7,256 bases of DNA from a virus (IMGVR_UViG_2558860161_000004), one strand, 5' to 3'; shown: positions 1-7,256, counted from the stretch's first letter. Numbers and translations are program-made. Notes: generated from the sequence alone by a model not told the origin.

Positions 1-594
1 ATGCTTATTGGCTATGTACGCGTGTCAACAAATGACCAGAACACGGAATTGCAGCGTAACGCGCTGGAGTGCGCAGGATGCGAGCGGATTTTTGAGGATA
101 AAATCAGCGGCACGAAGTCCGACAGACCGGGACTGAAAAAACTGCTCAGAACATTATCAGCAGGTGACACTCTGGTAGTCTGGAAGCTGGACAGGCTGGG
201 GCGTAGTATGCGGCATCTGGTCATTCTGGTTGAGGAACTGCGCGAACGCGGCGTTAATTTTCGCAGTCTGACGGATGCTATTGATACCAGCACGCCGATG
301 GGGCGTTTTTTCTTTCATGTGATGGGTGCCCTGGCTGAAATGGAGCGAGAACTCATTGTCGAGCGGACACGCGCCGGACTGGAAACGGCCAGAGCCAAAG
401 GTCGTATTGGTGGCAGACGTCCGAAACTCACCGCGAGTGAGTGGGAGCAGGTCGGACGGTTGCTGGCTGCGGGGGAATCTCGTCAACGTGTGGCGCTGAT
501 TTTTGATATTGGCCTGTCCACGCTCTATAAAAAATTTCCCTCATCAGCGACAAAGAATAAATTGTGTCATCCCTTAGCCAACCGGGACAAATAG
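1..594 (+). CDS. Site-specific DNA invertase, serine recombinase of the Gin/Pin/Cin/Hin family
   Basis: 197-aa ORF starting at the window edge. N-terminus MLIGYVRVSTNDQ carries the catalytic serine (Ser9) in the resolvase/invertase motif. The C-terminal part (GRPKLT...ALIFDIGLSTLYKK) matches the helix-turn-helix DNA-binding domain of this family. From memory it is near-collinear with phage Mu Gin (about 190 aa). No search was run. Confidence 0.93.
   Translation: MLIGYVRVSTNDQNTELQRNALECAGCERIFEDKISGTKSDRPGLKKLLRTLSAGDTLVVWKLDRLGRSMRHLVILVEELRERGVNFRSLTDAIDTSTPMGRFFFHVMGALAEMERELIVERTRAGLETARAKGRIGGRRPKLTASEWEQVGRLLAAGESRQRVALIFDIGLSTLYKKFPSSATKNKLCHPLANRDK
94..158. promoter_or_regulatory. 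Candidate Fis-dependent recombinational enhancer inside the invertase 5' coding region
   Basis: In Hin/Gin/Cin systems the enhancer with two Fis sites lies within the first ~200 bp of the invertase gene. Here there are 15-bp G-N13-C windows with AT-rich cores at 94-108 (GAGGATAAAATCAGC), 97-111, 131-145 (GACTGAAAAAACTGC) and 144-158 (GCTCAGAACATTATC). The 97-111 and 144-158 centres are ~47 bp apart, close to the ~48 bp spacing reported for hin. Motif match is degenerate, so this is a candidate only. Confidence 0.25.
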
Positions 595-653
595 CCTGAC
601 ATCTCCGGCACAACTGAAAATACCACTCACCCATTAACCACGGAGTTAAACGG

Positions 654-1844
654 ATGAGTGACTATCATCACGGCGTGCAGGTGCTGGAGATTAACGACGG
701 CACCCGCGTCATTTCCACCGTATCCACTGCCATTGTCGGCATGGTCTGCACGGCCAGCGATGCGGATGCGGAAACCTTCCCCCTCAATAAACCTGTGCTG
801 ATTACCAATGTGCAGAGCGCAATTGCAAAGGCCGGTAAAAAAGGCACGCTGGCAGCATCGTTGCAGGCCATCGCTGACCAGTCAAAACCGGTCACCGTTG
901 TCGTGCGTGTGGAAGACGGCACCGGCGAAGACGAGGAAACGAAACTTGCGCAGACCGTTTCCAATATCATTGGCACCACCGACGAAAACGGTCAGTACAC
1001 CGGACTGAAAGCCCTGCTGGCGGCGGAGTCGGTAACCGGTGTTAAACCGCGTATTCTCGGCGTGCCGGGACTGGACACCAAAGAGGTGGCTGTTGCACTG
1101 GCATCAGTCTGTCAGAAGCTGCGCGCTTTCGGGTATATCAGCGCATGGGGTTGTAAAACCATTTCCGAGGTGAAAGCCTACCGTCAGAATTTCAGCCAGC
1201 GTGAGCTGATGGTCATCTGGCCGGATTTCCTCGCATGGGATACGGTCACCAGTACTACCGCCACCGCGTATGCCACCGCCCGTGCGCTGGGTCTGCGTGC
1301 CAGAATTGACCAGGAGCAGGGCTGGCATAAAACGCTGTCCAATGTCGGGGTGAACGGTGTTACCGGCATCAGCGCCTCTGTATTCTGGGATTTGCAGGAG
1401 TCCGGCACCGATGCTGACTTGCTTAACGAGTCAGGCGTCACAACGCTGATTCGCCGCGACGGTTTCCGCTTCTGGGGTAACCGTACCTGCTCTGATGACC
1501 CGCTGTTCCTCTTTGAAAACTACACCCGCACCGCGCAGGTGCTGGCCGACACGATGGCTGAGGCGCACATGTGGGCGGTGGACAAGCCCATCACCGCAAC
1601 GCTGATTCGCGACATCGTTGACGGCATCAATGCCAAATTCCGTGAGCTGAAAACAAACGGCTATATCGTGGATGCGACCTGCTGGTTCAGCGAAGAATCC
1701 AACGATGCGGAAACCCTCAAGGCCGGAAAACTGTATATCGACTACGACTATACACCGGTGCCTCCTCTTGAAAACCTGACCCTGCGCCAGCGTATTACCG
1801 ATAAATACCTGGCAAATCTGGTCACTTCGGTTAACAGCAATTAA
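654..1844 (+). CDS. FI: Contractile tail sheath protein (P2 gpFI family)
   Basis: 396-aa ORF, the same length as P2 gpFI. The translation (MSDYHHGVQVLEIN...LANLVTSVNSN) matches my recollection of P2 FI essentially end to end. GGAG Shine-Dalgarno at 642-645, 8 nt upstream of the ATG. Followed immediately by the tube gene, as in P2. Confidence 0.95.
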   Translation: MSDYHHGVQVLEINDGTRVISTVSTAIVGMVCTASDADAETFPLNKPVLITNVQSAIAKAGKKGTLAASLQAIADQSKPVTVVVRVEDGTGEDEETKLAQTVSNIIGTTDENGQYTGLKALLAAESVTGVKPRILGVPGLDTKEVAVALASVCQKLRAFGYISAWGCKTISEVKAYRQNFSQRELMVIWPDFLAWDTVTSTTATAYATARALGLRARIDQEQGWHKTLSNVGVNGVTGISASVFWDLQESGTDADLLNESGVTTLIRRDGFRFWGNRTCSDDPLFLFENYTRTAQVLADTMAEAHMWAVDKPITATLIRDIVDGINAKFRELKTNGYIVDATCWFSEESNDAETLKAGKLYIDYDYTPVPPLENLTLRQRITDKYLANLVTSVNSN

Positions 1845-1856
1845 GGAGCCTGACCG

Positions 1857-2375
1857 ATGGCAATGCCGCGCAAACTCAAGTTAATGAACGTCTTTCTGAA
1901 CGGCTACAGCTATCAGGGCGTTGCAAAGTCCGTCACGCTGCCAAAACTGACCCGTAAGCTCGAAAACTATCGCGGTGCGGGGATGAACGGCAGCGCACCG
2001 GTAGACCTCGGCCTTGATGACGATGCGCTGTCAATGGAGTGGTCGCTCGGGGGCTTCCCGGATTCGGTTATCTGGGAGCTCTATGCCGCAACCGGCGTGG
2101 ATGCCGTACCGATTCGTTTTGCTGGCTCTTACCAGCGCGACGATACCGGCGAAACGGTGGCCGTCGAGGTGGTCATGCGTGGACGTCAGAAAGAAATCGA
2201 CACCGGCGAGGGGAAACAGGGAGAAGACACTGAGTCGAAAATCTCCGTGGTCTGCACCTATTTCCGGCTGACGATGGACGGTAAGGAGCTGGTCGAAATC
2301 GACACCATCAACATGATTGAGAAGGTGAACGGCGTCGACCGGCTGGAGCAACACCGCCGCAATATCGGCCTGTGA
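1857..2375 (+). CDS. FII: Tail tube protein (P2 gpFII family)
   Basis: 172-aa ORF, the same length as P2 gpFII (MAMPRKLKLMNVFLNGYSYQGV...). Strong AGGAG Shine-Dalgarno at 1846-1850, 6 nt before the ATG. Lies directly downstream of the sheath gene. Confidence 0.95.
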   Translation: MAMPRKLKLMNVFLNGYSYQGVAKSVTLPKLTRKLENYRGAGMNGSAPVDLGLDDDALSMEWSLGGFPDSVIWELYAATGVDAVPIRFAGSYQRDDTGETVAVEVVMRGRQKEIDTGEGKQGEDTESKISVVCTYFRLTMDGKELVEIDTINMIEKVNGVDRLEQHRRNIGL

Positions 2376-2431: not shown

Positions 2432-2707
2432 ATGAACAAAGAAAATGTGATTACCCTGGACAATCCGGTCAAGCGTGGTGAGCAGGTCATCGAACAGGTC
2501 ACGCTGATGAAACCCAATGCCGGGACGCTGCGCGGTGTCAGTCTGGCTGCGGTCGCGAACTCCGAAGTCGATGCACTGATTAAGGTGCTGCCGCGCATGA
2601 CTGCACCGATGCTGACCGAGCAGGAAGTCGCCGCACTGGAACTGCCTGACCTTGTGGCGCTGGCCGGTAAGGTGGTCGGTTTTTTGTCGCCGAACTCGGT
2701 ACAGTGA
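2432..2707 (+). CDS. E: Tail assembly chaperone gpE (zero-frame product)
   Basis: 91-aa ORF, the same length as P2 gpE, ending ...GKVVGFLSPNSVQ. Located between the tube and tape-measure genes, the conserved position for the chaperone pair in contractile and non-contractile tails. Confidence 0.92.
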   Translation: MNKENVITLDNPVKRGEQVIEQVTLMKPNAGTLRGVSLAAVANSEVDALIKVLPRMTAPMLTEQEVAALELPDLVALAGKVVGFLSPNSVQ

Positions 2708-2859
2708 CGTTTCCGAAAAATCTGTCGGTCGATGACCTGATGGCGGATGTGGCAGTGATATTTCACTGGCCGCCATCAGAACTGTATCCCATGAGCCTGG
2801 CCGAACTCATCACATGGCGCGAAAAGGCGCTCCGGCGAAGCGGAAACACGAATGAGTAA
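2432..2859 (+). CDS. E': Tail assembly chaperone gpE+E' fusion made by programmed -1 ribosomal frameshift (join 2432..2686 and 2686..2859)
   Basis: I translated the -1 frame by hand from the slip site. After GGT TTT TTG the -1 frame reads V A E L G T V T F P K N L S V D D L M A D V A V I F H W P P S E L Y P M S L A E L I T W R E K A L R R S G N T N E and stops at TAA 2857-2859. The predicted fusion is 142 aa, matching P2 E+E'. The E' stop overlaps the T start codon at 2852. Confidence 0.8.
2680..2686 (+). promoter_or_regulatory. -1 frameshift slippery heptamer T TTT TTG (X XXY YYZ)
   Basis: Zero-frame codons GGT(2678-2680) TTT(2681-2683) TTG(2684-2686) place the six-T run plus G exactly in X XXY YYZ register, 7 codons before the E stop. 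This is the same heptamer class described for P2 E/E' and analogous to lambda G/GT. Confidence 0.8.
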
Positions 2860-5299
2860 CAATGTAAAATTACAGGTATTGCTCAGGGCTGTTGACCAGG
2901 CATCCCGCCCGTTTAAATCCATCCGTACAGCGAGTAAGTCGCTGTCGGGGGATATCCGGGAAACACAAAAATCACTGCGCGAGCTGAACGGTCACGCATC
3001 CCGTATTGAGGGATTCCGCAAGACCAGTGCACAGCTTGCCGTGACTGGTCATGCACTTGAAAAGGCACGGCAGGAAGCCGAAGCCCTTGCCACACAGTTT
3101 AAAAACACCGAACGTCCGACCCGTGCTCAGGCGAAAGTGCTGGAATCCGCAAAGCGTGCGGCGGAGGACTTACAGGCGAAATATAACCGCCTGACGGATT
3201 CCGTTAAACGCCAGCAGCGGGAACTGGCCGCTGTGGGAATTAATACCCGCAATCTTGCACATGATGAGCAGGGACTGAAAAACCGTATCAGTGAAACCAC
3301 CGCACAGCTTAACCGTCAGCGCGACGCGCTGGCGCGTGTCAGTGCGCAACAGGCAAAACTTAACGCAGTAAAACAGCGTTATCAGTCCGGAAAGGAACTG
3401 GCCGGAAATATGGCCTCAGTGGGCGCTGCCGGTGTGGGGATTGCGGCGGCGGGAACGATGGCCGGTGTTAAGCTACTGATGCCCGGTTATGAGTTTGCGC
3501 AGAAAAACTCAGAATTGCAGGCCGTGCTAGGTGTGGCAAAAGACTCCGCCGAAATGGCCGCATTACGCAAACAGGCGCGCCAGCTCGGCGACAATACCGC
3601 AGCCTCGGCAGATGATGCAGCCGGTGCGCAGATTATCATTGCGAAAGCCGGTGGGGATGTTGATGCCATTCAGGCGGCAACGCCGGTTACACTGAATATG
3701 GCGCTGGCGAACCGCCGCACGATGGAAGAAAACGCCGCCCTGCTGATGGGGATGAAATCTGCCTTTCAGCTTTCAAACGATAAGGTCGCTCATATCGGGG
3801 ATGTTCTCTCCATGACGATGAACAAAACCGCCGCCGATTTTGACGGCATGAGCGATGCGCTGACCTATGCCGCACCTGTGGCAAAAAATGCCGGTGTCAG
3901 CATTGAAGAAACCGCCGCAATGGTCGGGGCGCTGCATGATGCAAAAATTACAGGCTCAATGGCGGGGACGGGAAGCCGTGCCGTGTTAAGTCGCCTGCAG
4001 GCACCAACGGGAAAAGCATGGGATGCACTCAAAGAGCTTGGCGTGAAAACCTCAGACAGCAAGGGAAACACCCGGCCAATATTTACCATTCTGAAAGAAA
4101 TGCAGGCCAGTTTTGAGAAAAACCGGCTTGGTACTGCCCAGCAGGCTGAATACATGAAAACTATTTTCGGGGAGGAGGCCAGCTCAGCCGCCGCCGTGCT
4201 GATGACTGCCGCCTCAACCGGAAAGCTGGACAAACTGACCGCTGCGTTTAAAGCCTCAAACGGGAAGACTGCCGAGCTGGTAAATATCATGCAGGACAAC
4301 CTCGGCGGTGACTTTAAGGAGTTTCAGTCCGCTTATGAGGCGGTGGGGACAGACCTGTTTGACCAGCAGGAAGGCGCACTGCGTAAGCTCACACAGACGG
4401 CCACAAAGTATGTGTTAAAACTCGACGGCTGGATCCAGAAAAACAAATCACTGGCGTCAACCATTGGCATCATTGCCGGTGGCGCGCTGGCGCTTATTGG
4501 CATCATCGGTGCAATTGGTCTTGTAGCCTGGCCGGTTATCACTGGCATCAATGCCATCATCGCGGCAGCAGGCGCAATGGGGGCAATCTTCACGACGGTT
4601 GGCAGTGCTGTTATGACGGCCATCGGGGCGATTAGCTGGCCGGTTGTGGCCGTGGTGGCCGCCATTGTCGCCGGGGCGTTGCTTATCCGTAAATACTGGG
4701 AGCCTGTCAGCGCATTCTTTGGCGGTGTGGTGGAAGGGCTGAAAGCGGTATTTGCGCCGGTGGGGGAACTGTTCACGCCACTTAAGCCGGTGTTTGACTG
4801 GCTGGGCGAAAAGTTACAGGCCGCGTGGCAGTGGCTTAAAAACCTGATTGCCCCCGTCAAAGCCACCCAGGACACCCTGAACCGTTGTCGTGACACGGGT
4901 GTCATGTTCGGGCAGGCACTGGCTGACGCGTTGATGCTGCCGCTTAATGCGTTCAACAAACTGCGCAGCGGTATTGACTGGGTACTGGAAAAACTCGGTG
5001 TTATCAACAAAGAGTCAGACACACTTGACCAGACCGCCGCCAGAACTCAAGCCGCCACGTATGGCAGCGGTGGTTATATTCCGGCGACCAGCTCTTATGC
5101 AGGCTATCAGGCTTATCAGCCGGTCACGGCACCGGCTGGCCGCTCTTATGTGGACCAGAGTAAAAACGAATATCACATCAGCCTGACGGGTGGCACTGCG
5201 CCGGGGACACAGCTTGACCGCCAGTTACAGGATGCGCTCGAAAAATACGAGCGGGGTAAACGTGCGCGCGCCCGTGCCAGCATGATGCATGACGGTTAA
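2852..5299 (+). CDS. T: Tail tape measure protein (P2 gpT family)
   Basis: 815-aa ORF, the same length as P2 gpT. The N-terminal third is rich in Q/R/A/L/E heptad-like sequence (coiled coil). A long Gly/Ala/Ile-rich hydrophobic segment lies at about residues 532-616. It sits immediately downstream of the E/E' chaperone pair. All of this is typical of tape measure proteins. Confidence 0.95.
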   Translation: MSNNVKLQVLLRAVDQASRPFKSIRTASKSLSGDIRETQKSLRELNGHASRIEGFRKTSAQLAVTGHALEKARQEAEALATQFKNTERPTRAQAKVLESAKRAAEDLQAKYNRLTDSVKRQQRELAAVGINTRNLAHDEQGLKNRISETTAQLNRQRDALARVSAQQAKLNAVKQRYQSGKELAGNMASVGAAGVGIAAAGTMAGVKLLMPGYEFAQKNSELQAVLGVAKDSAEMAALRKQARQLGDNTAASADDAAGAQIIIAKAGGDVDAIQAATPVTLNMALANRRTMEENAALLMGMKSAFQLSNDKVAHIGDVLSMTMNKTAADFDGMSDALTYAAPVAKNAGVSIEETAAMVGALHDAKITGSMAGTGSRAVLSRLQAPTGKAWDALKELGVKTSDSKGNTRPIFTILKEMQASFEKNRLGTAQQAEYMKTIFGEEASSAAAVLMTAASTGKLDKLTAAFKASNGKTAELVNIMQDNLGGDFKEFQSAYEAVGTDLFDQQEGALRKLTQTATKYVLKLDGWIQKNKSLASTIGIIAGGALALIGIIGAIGLVAWPVITGINAIIAAAGAMGAIFTTVGSAVMTAIGAISWPVVAVVAAIVAGALLIRKYWEPVSAFFGGVVEGLKAVFAPVGELFTPLKPVFDWLGEKLQAAWQWLKNLIAPVKATQDTLNRCRDTGVMFGQALADALMLPLNAFNKLRSGIDWVLEKLGVINKESDTLDQTAARTQAATYGSGGYIPATSSYAGYQAYQPVTAPAGRSYVDQSKNEYHISLTGGTAPGTQLDRQLQDALEKYERGKRARARASMMHDG

Positions 5300-5313: not shown

Positions 5314-5793
5314 ATGATGCTCGCGTTAGGTATGTTTGTTTTTATGCGCCAGACGCTGCCACACCAGACCATGCAGCGTGAATCAGATTATCGCTGGCCG
5401 TCAAATTCCCGTATCGGTAAACGGGATGCCTACCAGTTTCTCGGTGTGGGTGAGGAAAACATGACGCTTGCCGGCGTGCTTTATCCCGAACTGACCGGCG
5501 GGAAGCTGACGATGACCACGCTCAGGCTAATGGCAGAGGAAGGCCGGGCGTGGCCGTTGCTGGATGGCACCGGCATGATTTACGGCATGTATGTCATCAG
5601 CAGGGTGAGTGAAACAGGGAGTATTTTCTTTGCAGACGGCACACCCCGAAAAATTGATTTTACGCTGTCGCTCACCCGTGTTGATGAATCACTGGCCGCG
5701 CTTTATGGCGATATCGGTAAACAGGCGGAATCGCTCATCGGTAAGGCTGGCAGTATGGCGGCTAAATTCACGGGTATGACGGGGGCGGAATAA
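5314..5793 (+). CDS. U: Tail protein gpU (P2 GpU family; tail/baseplate assembly component)
   Basis: 159-aa ORF, the same length as P2 gpU. Strong AAGGAGGTGA Shine-Dalgarno at 5298-5307, ending 6 nt before the ATG. Position between T and D is as in P2. The precise structural role is not asserted from sequence. Confidence 0.92.
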   Translation: MMLALGMFVFMRQTLPHQTMQRESDYRWPSNSRIGKRDAYQFLGVGEENMTLAGVLYPELTGGKLTMTTLRLMAEEGRAWPLLDGTGMIYGMYVISRVSETGSIFFADGTPRKIDFTLSLTRVDESLAALYGDIGKQAESLIGKAGSMAAKFTGMTGAE

Positions 5794-6956
5794 TGCTGGA
5801 TGCGCGGACATTTAATGCAGGCAGTACGCTGACGCCGGATTACATGCTGATGCTCGACAGCAGTGATATTACCGGTAATATCAGCGACCGTCTGATGAGC
5901 ATGACCCTGACGGATAACCGGGGCTTTGAGGCTGACCAGCTTGATATTGAACTGAACGATGCCGACGGGCAGGTCGGGCTGCCGGTTCGTGGCGCTGTCC
6001 TGACGGTGTATATCGGCTGGAAAGGTTTTGCCCTGGTATGCAAAGGGAAATTTACCGTTGATGAGGTTGAACACCGGGGCGCGCCGGATGTGGTCACCAT
6101 CCGCGCCCGGAGTGCAGATTTTCGCGGGACGCTCAATTCCCGCCGTGAAGGTTCATGGCATGACACCACGCTCGGTGCGATTGTTGAGGCGATAGCCTCC
6201 CGTAACAGGCTGGAAGCCAGTGTCGCTCCGTCACTGGCCGGAATTAAAATCCCACACATCGACCAGTCGCAGGAGTCCGACGCGAAATTCCTGACCCGTC
6301 TTGCAGAACGCAACGGCGGTGAGGTGTCGGTAAAAATGGGAAAACTGTTGTTTCTCAAAGCGGGGCAGGGGGTGACGGCCAGTGGTAAAAAAATCCCGCA
6401 GGTCACCATAACCCGCAGCGACGGCGACCGCCATCATTTTGCGATTGCTGACCGTGGAGCCTATACCGGCGTAACGGCAAAGTGGTTACACACCAAAGAC
6501 CCGAAGCCACAAAAGCAGAAGGTAAAACTGAAACGCAAAAAGAAAGAGAAACACCTGCGCGCACTGGAGCACCCGAAAGCGAAACCGGTCACGCAGAAGA
6601 AAGCGCCAAAAGTACCGGAAGCGCGCGAAGGTGAATACATGGCAGGTGAGGCTGACAACGTTTTTGCCCTGACCACGGTATATGCCACGAAAGCACAGGC
6701 CATGCGTGCTGCTCAGGCGAAGTGGGATAAACTGCAACGGGGCGTTGCGGAGTTCTCCATCATCCTGGCTACCGGTCGTGCAGATATTTACACGGAAACA
6801 CCGGTCAGAGTGTCAGGCTTTAAGCGCGTCATAGACGAGCAGGACTGGACAATCACTAAGGTGACACACTTTCTGAATAATTCCGGCTTCACGACGTCCT
6901 TAGAGCTTGAGGTCAGGCTTTCTGATGTGGAGTATGAAACAGAAGATAATGAGTGA
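5793..6956 (+). CDS. D: Tail protein gpD (P2 late control gene D family; probable baseplate hub-like protein)
   Basis: 387-aa ORF, the same length as P2 gpD. Its start overlaps the U stop by one base (TAATG at 5791-5795). It contains an internal lysine-rich low-complexity stretch. The hub-like role is from literature on P2-like tails and R-type pyocins, not from this sequence. Confidence 0.92.
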   Translation: MLDARTFNAGSTLTPDYMLMLDSSDITGNISDRLMSMTLTDNRGFEADQLDIELNDADGQVGLPVRGAVLTVYIGWKGFALVCKGKFTVDEVEHRGAPDVVTIRARSADFRGTLNSRREGSWHDTTLGAIVEAIASRNRLEASVAPSLAGIKIPHIDQSQESDAKFLTRLAERNGGEVSVKMGKLLFLKAGQGVTASGKKIPQVTITRSDGDRHHFAIADRGAYTGVTAKWLHTKDPKPQKQKVKLKRKKKEKHLRALEHPKAKPVTQKKAPKVPEAREGEYMAGEADNVFALTTVYATKAQAMRAAQAKWDKLQRGVAEFSIILATGRADIYTETPVRVSGFKRVIDEQDWTITKVTHFLNNSGFTTSLELEVRLSDVEYETEDNE

Positions 6957-7037: not shown

Positions 7038-7256
7038 ATGTTTCATTGTCCTTTATGCCAGCATGCCGCACATGCGCGTACAAGTCGCTATATCACTGAC
7101 ACGACAAAAGAGCGTTATCACCAGTGTCAGAACGTGAATTGCAGCGCCACGTTCATCACTTATGAGTCGGTACAGCGATACATCGTGAAGCCGGGAGAAG
7201 TCCACGCCGTAAGGCCGCACCCGTTGCCGTCAGGGCAGCAAATTATGTGGATGTAA
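7038..7256 (+). CDS. ogr: Late gene transcriptional activator Ogr (zinc-finger protein, Ogr/Delta family)
   Basis: 72-aa product MFHCPLCQHAAHARTSRYITDTTKERYHQCQNVNC... with the Cys-x2-Cys-N22-Cys-x4-Cys zinc-binding motif, matching P2 Ogr in length and sequence from memory. GGAAGAGG Shine-Dalgarno at 7022-7029. The ORF track's 93-aa version starts at an upstream TTG (6975) with no Shine-Dalgarno; the ATG at 7038 is the credible start. Confidence 0.9.
   Translation: MFHCPLCQHAAHARTSRYITDTTKERYHQCQNVNCSATFITYESVQRYIVKPGEVHAVRPHPLPSGQQIMWM

Follow-up and report, generated by a model that had tools for sequence, protein, structure and literature searches.

A Pin/Fin-type DNA invertase gene upstream of the sheath gene in a P2-like Escherichia coli prophage and its predicted tail-fibre switch

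In phages Mu and P1, which belong to the same mechanism class as the locus described here, the invertases Gin and Cin act on the G segment (3 kb) and the C segment (4.2 kb), respectively, with alternative fibre genes (S/U versus S′/U′), 26-bp crossover sites, and an enhancer located inside the invertase gene. In Mu, Salmonella and P1 this Fis-dependent enhancer is expected in the 5′ coding part of the gene, and the two Fis sites of the hin enhancer are 48 bp apart. Kahmann et al. (1985) reportedly place the Mu enhancer inside the invertase gene, and the distance between the hin enhancer and a hix site is given as about 100 bp (PMC3798978). Two further systems stand closer to the present one. 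The e14 element of E. coli K-12, whose invertible P segment is served by pinE, carries the stf constant part, a crossover site, the stfP-tfaP and tfaE-stfE alternatives, a second site, and pin; Fels-2, a P2-family phage of Salmonella LT2, features the order J, I, H, G, G′(−), H′(−), invertase, FI, FII, E, E′, T, with Fin (STM2702) as its invertase and two inverted 26-bp sites, the nearer of which lies 54 bp from the start codon. In phage P2 itself, the interval between G and FI is annotated as a terminator followed by fun(Z), and a recent preprint (iLund4u, 10.1101/2024.10.15.618418) reports that a DNA invertase often occupies this Z/fun hotspot, with adjacent genes inverted. Finally, fibre segments of P2-like prophages have been observed to flip within EPEC cultures by both sequencing and PCR (PMC4272514).

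Here, we analysed a stretch of 7,256 nucleotides, referred to in its entirety as the window, whose base 1 is the first base of an invertase ATG and whose base 7256 is the end of the ogr stop codon. Both ends of the window are thus gene boundaries, a choice of cut that by construction leaves out the invertible segment, its crossover site and the promoter of the invertase, and the upstream region was read in relatives that are 97.6-99.3% identical to the window. Between nucleotides 574 and 7200 the window aligns to P2 (NC_001895) at 97.0% identity with zero gaps, its FI-FII-E-E′-T-U-D-ogr order is collinear with that of P2, and the Pfam families agree for all genes (Table 1); the carrier is a P2-like (Peduovirus) E. 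coli prophage. The gap-free P2 identity from nucleotide 574 onward places the invertase gene just 5′ of FI, at the position held by Z/fun in P2. In the relatives, homology to P2 ends at the 3′ end of gene I and resumes at window positions 562-574, and a cassette of approximately 3.6 kb, judging by these alignments, stands in for P2 H, G, the terminator and Z/fun (approximately 4.9 kb), thus extending beyond Z/fun alone. The original prediction of a complete serine invertase spanning nucleotides 1-653 at the Z/fun position is upheld as to the ORF, its location and FI as the next gene, but needs correction in two respects: nucleotides 595-653 are the pF promoter region, and the replaced interval runs from the end of gene I through H, G and the terminator to Z/fun.

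Table 1. Features of the window, with synonymous-site statistics for the invertase gene (30-gene alignment; obs/exp, observed over expected synonymous differences).
Feature	Position	Strand	Remarks
Pin/Gin-type DNA invertase gene	1..594	+	197 aa, small serine recombinase, N-terminal catalytic domain and C-terminal HTH
Putative Fis site I (GTGTCAACAAATGAC)	22..36		codons 8-12; G..C 15-mer in 24/30 invertase genes
First constrained patch	codons 9-16		obs/exp 0.54; z = -10.6; bootstrap 0.46-0.61
Gap without constraint between patches	codons 17-23		obs/exp 1.03
Putative Fis site II (GCGCAGGATGCGAGC)	71..85		codons 24-29; G..C 15-mer in 27/30 invertase genes
Second constrained patch	codons 24-31		obs/exp 0.69; z = -7.3; bootstrap 0.60-0.80
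Later codons	codons 36-135		obs/exp 1.04; 8-codon windows from codon 36 on, 0.94-1.17
Ogr activator site of late promoter pF	557..585	+	P2 annotation 17555-17583 via gapless alignment; overlaps last ten invertase codons
Right-hand cassette/P2 backbone boundary	562..573		P2 identity from nt 574; other P2-like phages from nt 562
pF transcription start, FI-FII-E-E′-T-U-D operon	628..630	+	homology to P2 17626-17628, 99% identical alignment
Tail sheath gene FI	654..1844	+	first gene of conserved P2 backbone
FII	1857-2375		P2 late tail operon
E	2432-2707		P2 late tail operon
E′	ends 2859		P2 late tail operon
T	2852-5299		P2 late tail operon
U	5314-5793		P2 late tail operon
D	5793-6956		P2 late tail operon, then ogr

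The right-hand boundary of the cassette falls inside the invertase ORF, so that its last 7-11 codons and the stop codon consist of P2 backbone DNA, and this accounts for a C-terminal protein tail that is not conserved and is 13 residues longer than that of PinE. In the activator site of pF, the TGT half-site at 563-565 and the entire distal half are kept relative to P2. Terminator-like matches within the invertase ORF are weak, with 5-bp stems, and an Rfam scan of the window matched no family. Further into the tail operon, a plus-strand hairpin at 2383-2403 lies between the FII stop codon (2373-2375) and the E start (2432); it consists of a perfect 9-bp stem and a 3-nt loop (CCGGTCAGC-CAG-GCTGACCGG), is kept in P2 and has no T-run after it, and the surrounding region (2370-2435) folds with -19.9 kcal/mol (z = -2.6). 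This hairpin may act as an mRNA-stability or attenuation element between the abundantly expressed sheath and tube genes and the following genes, which are required at low copy number.

The invertase ORF is intact over its 594 nucleotides. As Fis/enhancer-dependent invertases we considered proteins with a catalytic N-terminus and a C-terminal helix-turn-helix, about 185-195 aa in length, and the 197-residue product features a Resolvase N-terminal domain at residues 3-135 (PF00239, E 1.5e-52) followed by an HTH_7 domain at residues 138-181 (PF02796, E 5e-13). Comparison with the solved Mu Gin matches residues 1-182 of both proteins (E 1.5e-93), and the Gin structures 3UJ3 and 4M6F match end to end, whereas gamma-delta resolvase is matched with E 3e-33 and the gamma-delta/Tn3 resolvases overall with about 1e-30, far more weakly than Gin. 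When aligned with Gin and Cin, the active-site residues S9, R7, R42, D64, R65 and R68 are all kept. In Hin, McLean et al. (PMC3798978) found K47, K/R48, K/R51, Q151, R154 and L155 to be conserved in Fis/enhancer-dependent invertases only, the first three making up a basic patch on helix B, while the other three lie on helix 1 of the DNA-binding domain and form the patch that contacts Fis; their counterparts K46, K47, R50, Q150, R153 and L154, numbered as Hin minus one, are all present here. Protein identity amounts to 86.4% with e14 PinE, 82.7% with Fels-2 Fin, 77.4% with P1 Cin and 75.9% with Mu Gin, and only a single residue (T129 here, A in the other protein) separates the window's product from WP_000905108.1 of E. 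coli SC492 and YZ3E2001. By its sequence, the protein is a member of the Hin/Gin/Cin/Pin subclass and predicted to be a catalytically active, Fis/enhancer-dependent invertase, in agreement with the family membership proposed originally.

Upstream of the invertase, all eleven relatives scanned share one gene order: fibre gene H, tfa on the plus strand, tfa on the minus strand, a fibre C-terminal fragment on the minus strand, and the invertase gene. Each of the eleven contains exactly two gix/pix-like sites of 26 bp in inverted orientation, while no such site was found in 66.6 kb of control DNA and the site scan found no crossover site within the window itself. The site sequences are identical in nine of the eleven relatives, and in the SWYHX138 pair the inner half-site differs by one SNP. 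Of the two sites, the left one (TTCTCGCATACC-TT-GGTTTGGGAGAA) is located within H and the right one (TTCTCCCAAACC-AA-CGTTTATGAAAA) ends 55 bp 5′ of the invertase ATG, corresponding to window coordinates of about -81 to -56; their central dinucleotides, TT and AA, are the same once the inverted orientation is allowed for, and both share the pattern of the annotated Mu gix boundaries of the G segment and of P1 cix. The intervening segment of approximately 1.9 kb contains oppositely oriented fibre 3′ ends, each with its own assembly gene, and the full cassette in these relatives thus reads: constant N-terminus of H, left site within H, H C-terminus A, tfaA (+), tfaB (−), H C-terminus B (−), right site, 55-bp spacer, invertase. 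When the SC492 segment is flipped in silico between the central dinucleotides, H stays open, with lengths of 432 versus 426 aa, and the two alternatives have 279 N-terminal residues in common, ending in LLAYLGLGE. A Collar domain is found in H_A and is absent from H_B, and both tfa products are Caudo_TAP chaperones. The minus-strand ORF next to the invertase, annotated as 'hypothetical' or 'tail collar fibre' in the relatives, corresponds to the alternative fibre C-terminus. The relatives therefore bear out what had been anticipated for the upstream DNA, namely a pair of inverted gix/cix-like sites of about 26 bp, the nearest of them just 5′ of position 1, and a tail-fibre segment as the target of inversion; for the window's own invertase copy, we infer from them that the same kind of segment lies 5′ of the gene.

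The inversion itself is captured in three pairs of relatives. SC492 and YZ3E2001, the two genomes that most closely match the 5′ end of the window, are collinear outside the crossover sites and inverted between them, with 99.8% identity over 1950 nt in reversed orientation; the in silico flipped version of SC492 is collinear with YZ3E2001 over 5200 nt, gap-free, and the predicted flipped junction, built before YZ3E2001 was examined, is present in the latter with 100% identity over 401 nt. GPEC1209 and GPEC1210, sister isolates from chicken (Georgia, USA) that are 97.8% identical to the whole window, have 100% identical flanks (1078 nt on the upstream side, 4083 nt on the downstream side), and their sole difference is inversion of the 1.87-kb interior. 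The third pair, SWYHX138.261ft and SWYHX138.33gt from Thoroughbred horse faeces (Hong Kong), is likewise inverted in the segment, and there the inner half-site SNP travels with it, which places the exchange at the site centre. The expectation that both orientations occur thus holds true in these pairs, and across genomes the junction is present in the as-found orientation in 348 cases and in the flipped one in 25. A separate observation comes from draft assemblies: five contigs begin inside a 26-bp crossover site beside a Gin-like invertase (L008, 1-12; L009, 1-24; L011, 1-19; L014, 1-22; L022, 1-19), the species concerned being Yokenella regensburgei, Citrobacter sp. wls619, C. pasteurii, Kluyvera georgiana and Photorhabdus antumapuensis, and in 12 of 80 loci fewer than 260 nt are available upstream of the invertase, mostly through a contig end. 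Typical assembler k-mers exceed the length of the shared half-site, and such breaks therefore suggest that the cultures used for sequencing contained both orientations.

To locate a possible enhancer, we codon-aligned 30 nonredundant invertase genes of the enterobacterial type, namely those of the window, Mu and P1 together with genes from 27 species genomes, and set the synonymous differences observed against those expected for each amino acid. Synonymous-site analysis of all 58 nonredundant proteobacterial homologues gave no clear signal; the signal emerged after amino-acid normalisation and restriction to the enterobacterial, phage-type group, with the other 28 serving as a negative control. 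It consists of two constrained patches at nucleotides of about 22-48 and 70-93, separated by a stretch free of constraint (Table 1). The 28 non-enterobacterial, plasmid-type homologues show no dip at either patch (obs/exp 1.12 and 1.20), which argues against a generic effect of the 5′ end of the mRNA. Within the first patch, nucleotides 22-42 (GTnTCAACAAATGACCAnAAC) are nearly invariant: at the third codon positions 27, 30 and 33, the same base occurs in 93-97% of the 30 genes, and the codon for serine 9 is TCA in 97% of sequences, even though serine has six codons. The conserved G..C 15-mers are of a kind typical for Fis cores. The centres of the two putative Fis sites lie approximately 49 bp apart in the register chosen here, compared with 48 bp in the hin enhancer, and that of site I is approximately 98 bp from the crossover-site centre in the relatives, compared with about 100 bp for hin. 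On the basis of these patterns, the two patches likely represent a Fis enhancer. Fis motifs are degenerate, however, and some of the constraint in the first patch could stem from demands of translation initiation. In many beta- and gammaproteobacterial genera we also encountered, time and again and with nearly the same score, a group of homologues that share approximately 64% identity with the query (loci L037, L039, L045, L047, L049, L050, L052, L055, L061 and L066 among them). Their candidate site (TTCTTGAAAACGTAGGTTTGTGACAA) is a different one and lies 0.8-2.8 kb upstream, the enhancer position is free of synonymous constraint, and the group looks like a widely transferred invertase borne on plasmids or transposons.

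Scans for sigma-70 promoters returned no consensus promoter in window positions 1-760 or in the 300 nt 5′ of the SC492 ATG, and expression of the invertase is thus assumed. By analogy with gin, its promoter would be weak and situated in or near the proximal crossover site.

In light of these results we propose, with a probability of roughly 0.88, the classical reading of the locus: a functional Fis/enhancer-dependent invertase flips the neighbouring segment and thereby switches the tail-fibre tip of a P2-like prophage. In such a scheme, invertase dimers would occupy the two inverted 26-bp sites, and host Fis would bind two sites approximately 49 bp apart within the first 90 or so nucleotides of the invertase coding sequence. 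The dimers, the sites and the Fis-bound enhancer would then assemble into an invertasome, where exchange at the central TT/AA would flip the 1.9-kb segment and join the constant part of H in frame to either C-terminus (432 or 426 aa), with the matching assembly chaperone downstream. Orientation would decide which fibre tip and chaperone are expressed from the pV late transcript, and a population of lysogens could consequently release particles of two receptor specificities. For the window itself, we infer Fis binding, catalysis by its protein, the upstream segment and the effect on host range.

The arrangement recurs in other genomes. Of 5426 complete E. coli genomes, 549 contain the invertase-FI junction, scored as at least 80% of window 1-1200, and so do six deposited phage records, which represent four phages, two of them deposited twice: S164, pro483, the P2-like phage of O157:H43 T22, and Salmonella phage MET_P1_103_31. 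Up to seven places per complete E. coli genome match window 1-1200, and the closest of these genomes are 99.3% identical over nucleotides 1-1200 and 97.9% over the whole window. Most of the window is present in 1554 complete E. coli genomes as opposed to the 549 with the junction, which puts the cassette in about one third of the P2-like tail clusters of these genomes. Closely related prophages occupy two chromosomal positions, beside yegQ/trhP in some strains and beside pflB in others (L001, 16037-17889; L087 and L088, 11538-13390; L089 and L091, 3′ of ogrK), with ogr annotated as 'ogrK' throughout. Individual copies deserve separate mention. In E. coli FDAARGOS_1058 (L090, 4501-5093) the invertase is annotated as frameshifted while the sites and the segment are still there, and the switch is probably frozen; in E. 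coli Z217-2 and Z217-4 (L092 and L093) the prophage is heavily deleted, with the sheath gene truncated and most of FI to D apparently gone, while the invertase and ogrK persist in the remnants, as does the invertible segment with its two crossover sites. In the SWYHX138 strains tfa is a pseudogene. Some copies of the cassette are thus decaying, as evidenced by the FDAARGOS_1058 frameshift and the SWYHX138 pseudogene.

This decay gives substance to a different reading of the window, in which its gene is intact but orphaned, the upstream segment or one of the sites having been lost or mutated, so that nothing flips and the locus is a decaying remnant. Besides the frameshift, the pseudogene and the Z217-2/Z217-4 deletions, such a scenario can draw on the fact that the window begins at the ATG and leaves the upstream DNA outside. 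We nevertheless regard it as unlikely: all eleven relatives scanned hold both sites and the full segment, pro483 (one of the eleven) and S164 were deposited as phage genomes, the window's ORF is intact with every catalytic and Fis-contact residue in place, and its product is one residue away from the protein encoded by SC492 and YZ3E2001, a pair that differs by the very inversion in question. Less plausible again is that the protein is a resolvase or an integrase, acting in cointegrate resolution or in prophage integration and excision instead of inversion. Its Pfam domains are indeed common to the Tn3/gamma-delta resolvases, but the match to gamma-delta falls far behind that to Gin, all the residues specific to Fis-dependent invertases are present, the surroundings offer neither a transposase nor a res-like context, and the large C-terminal domain of serine integrases is missing; moreover, the sites are inverted and the rearrangements seen between relatives are inversions. 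Match strengths, subclass residues, site orientation and observed inversions effectively refute this possibility, to which we assign next to no weight.

It is also conceivable that the host is the main beneficiary of the invertase, which would work in trans on further invertible segments of the chromosome or give rise to fibre/tfa products that change susceptibility to other phages, and would thereby functionally replace the anti-phage cargo of Z/fun. In favour of such a role, Fin can reportedly replace Hin and is cited as a second contributor to flagellar phase variation (Kutsukake 2006, as cited in PMC4272514), and genomes contain up to seven places matching window 1-1200. PinQ/PinR inversions are reported to block T2 adsorption, and the Z/fun locus is a known defence hotspot (10.1101/2024.10.15.618418). 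Against a predominantly host-serving role, the target in cis, with sites at a distance of 55 bp, is fully sufficient to explain the gene, and the cassette is present in the intact, inducible phages pro483 and S164; we consider such a role very unlikely as the main explanation, while it is compatible with, and not exclusive of, the tail-fibre switch. Going beyond host-range diversification, one can imagine the switch as a defence or exclusion device of the lysogen, with one orientation giving a fibre or tfa product that blocks adsorption of other phages, as reported for PinQ and PinR, or with action of the invertase in trans on other prophage segments, which would have displaced the Z/fun anti-phage cargo. 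In addition, the ORF ends within the Ogr site of pF, and an activator bound there at late times of infection could hinder transcription of the invertase and 'freeze' the fibre orientation during particle assembly. We put forward this combined device-and-freeze idea as speculation and deem it improbable.

With the tail-fibre switch as the preferred reading, the locus can be set against its known counterparts. The closest invertase is e14 PinE, and the likeness extends to the whole cassette: the gene order is the same, the proximal crossover site (TTCTCCCAAACCAACGTTTATGAAAA) is identical to the right site of the window's relatives, the distance to the ATG is approximately 55 bp in both, and one fibre end together with tfaE is 85-89% identical in DNA. 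The carriers differ, however, e14 being a defective lambdoid element with mcrA downstream, whereas the cassette here belongs to a complete P2-type tail cluster and directly precedes pF and FI, with the ORF 13 codons longer than pinE and running into the P2 backbone. Fels-2 has the same order of tail genes around its invertase, but belongs to the genus Felsduovirus, has approximately 2.7 kb between site centres as opposed to 1.9 kb, carries other fibre ends, and uses the core dinucleotide TC/GA instead of the TT/AA of the window's relatives. Mu shares the spacing of 54-55 bp between site and ATG, and the Mu and P1 invertases are 76-78% identical to that of the window, but both phages have unrelated backbones and larger segments, and in P1 the invertase is found on the opposite side of the segment.

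A tail-fibre inversion cassette on a P2-type backbone is thus already known from Fels-2, pro483, the EPEC prophages and the iLund4u preprint, and the tail-fibre invertase described here opens no new biological question. Its value lies in annotation, where such genes can be designated Pin/Fin-type tail-fibre invertases in place of the generic 'recombinase family protein'. With the cassette in about a third of the clusters, host-range predictions for these prophages need to consider both fibre ends, and in their assemblies the segment may appear in either orientation or be interrupted at the crossover site. The nearest precedents on the same backbone are pro483, in which the gene is already annotated as 'DNA invertase', S164, the P2-like phage of O157:H43 T22, and the prophages of EPEC E2348/69: all already contain the cassette, are 95.8-97.2% identical in DNA over window 1-1200, and differ from it by allelic variation in the variable fibre ends only.
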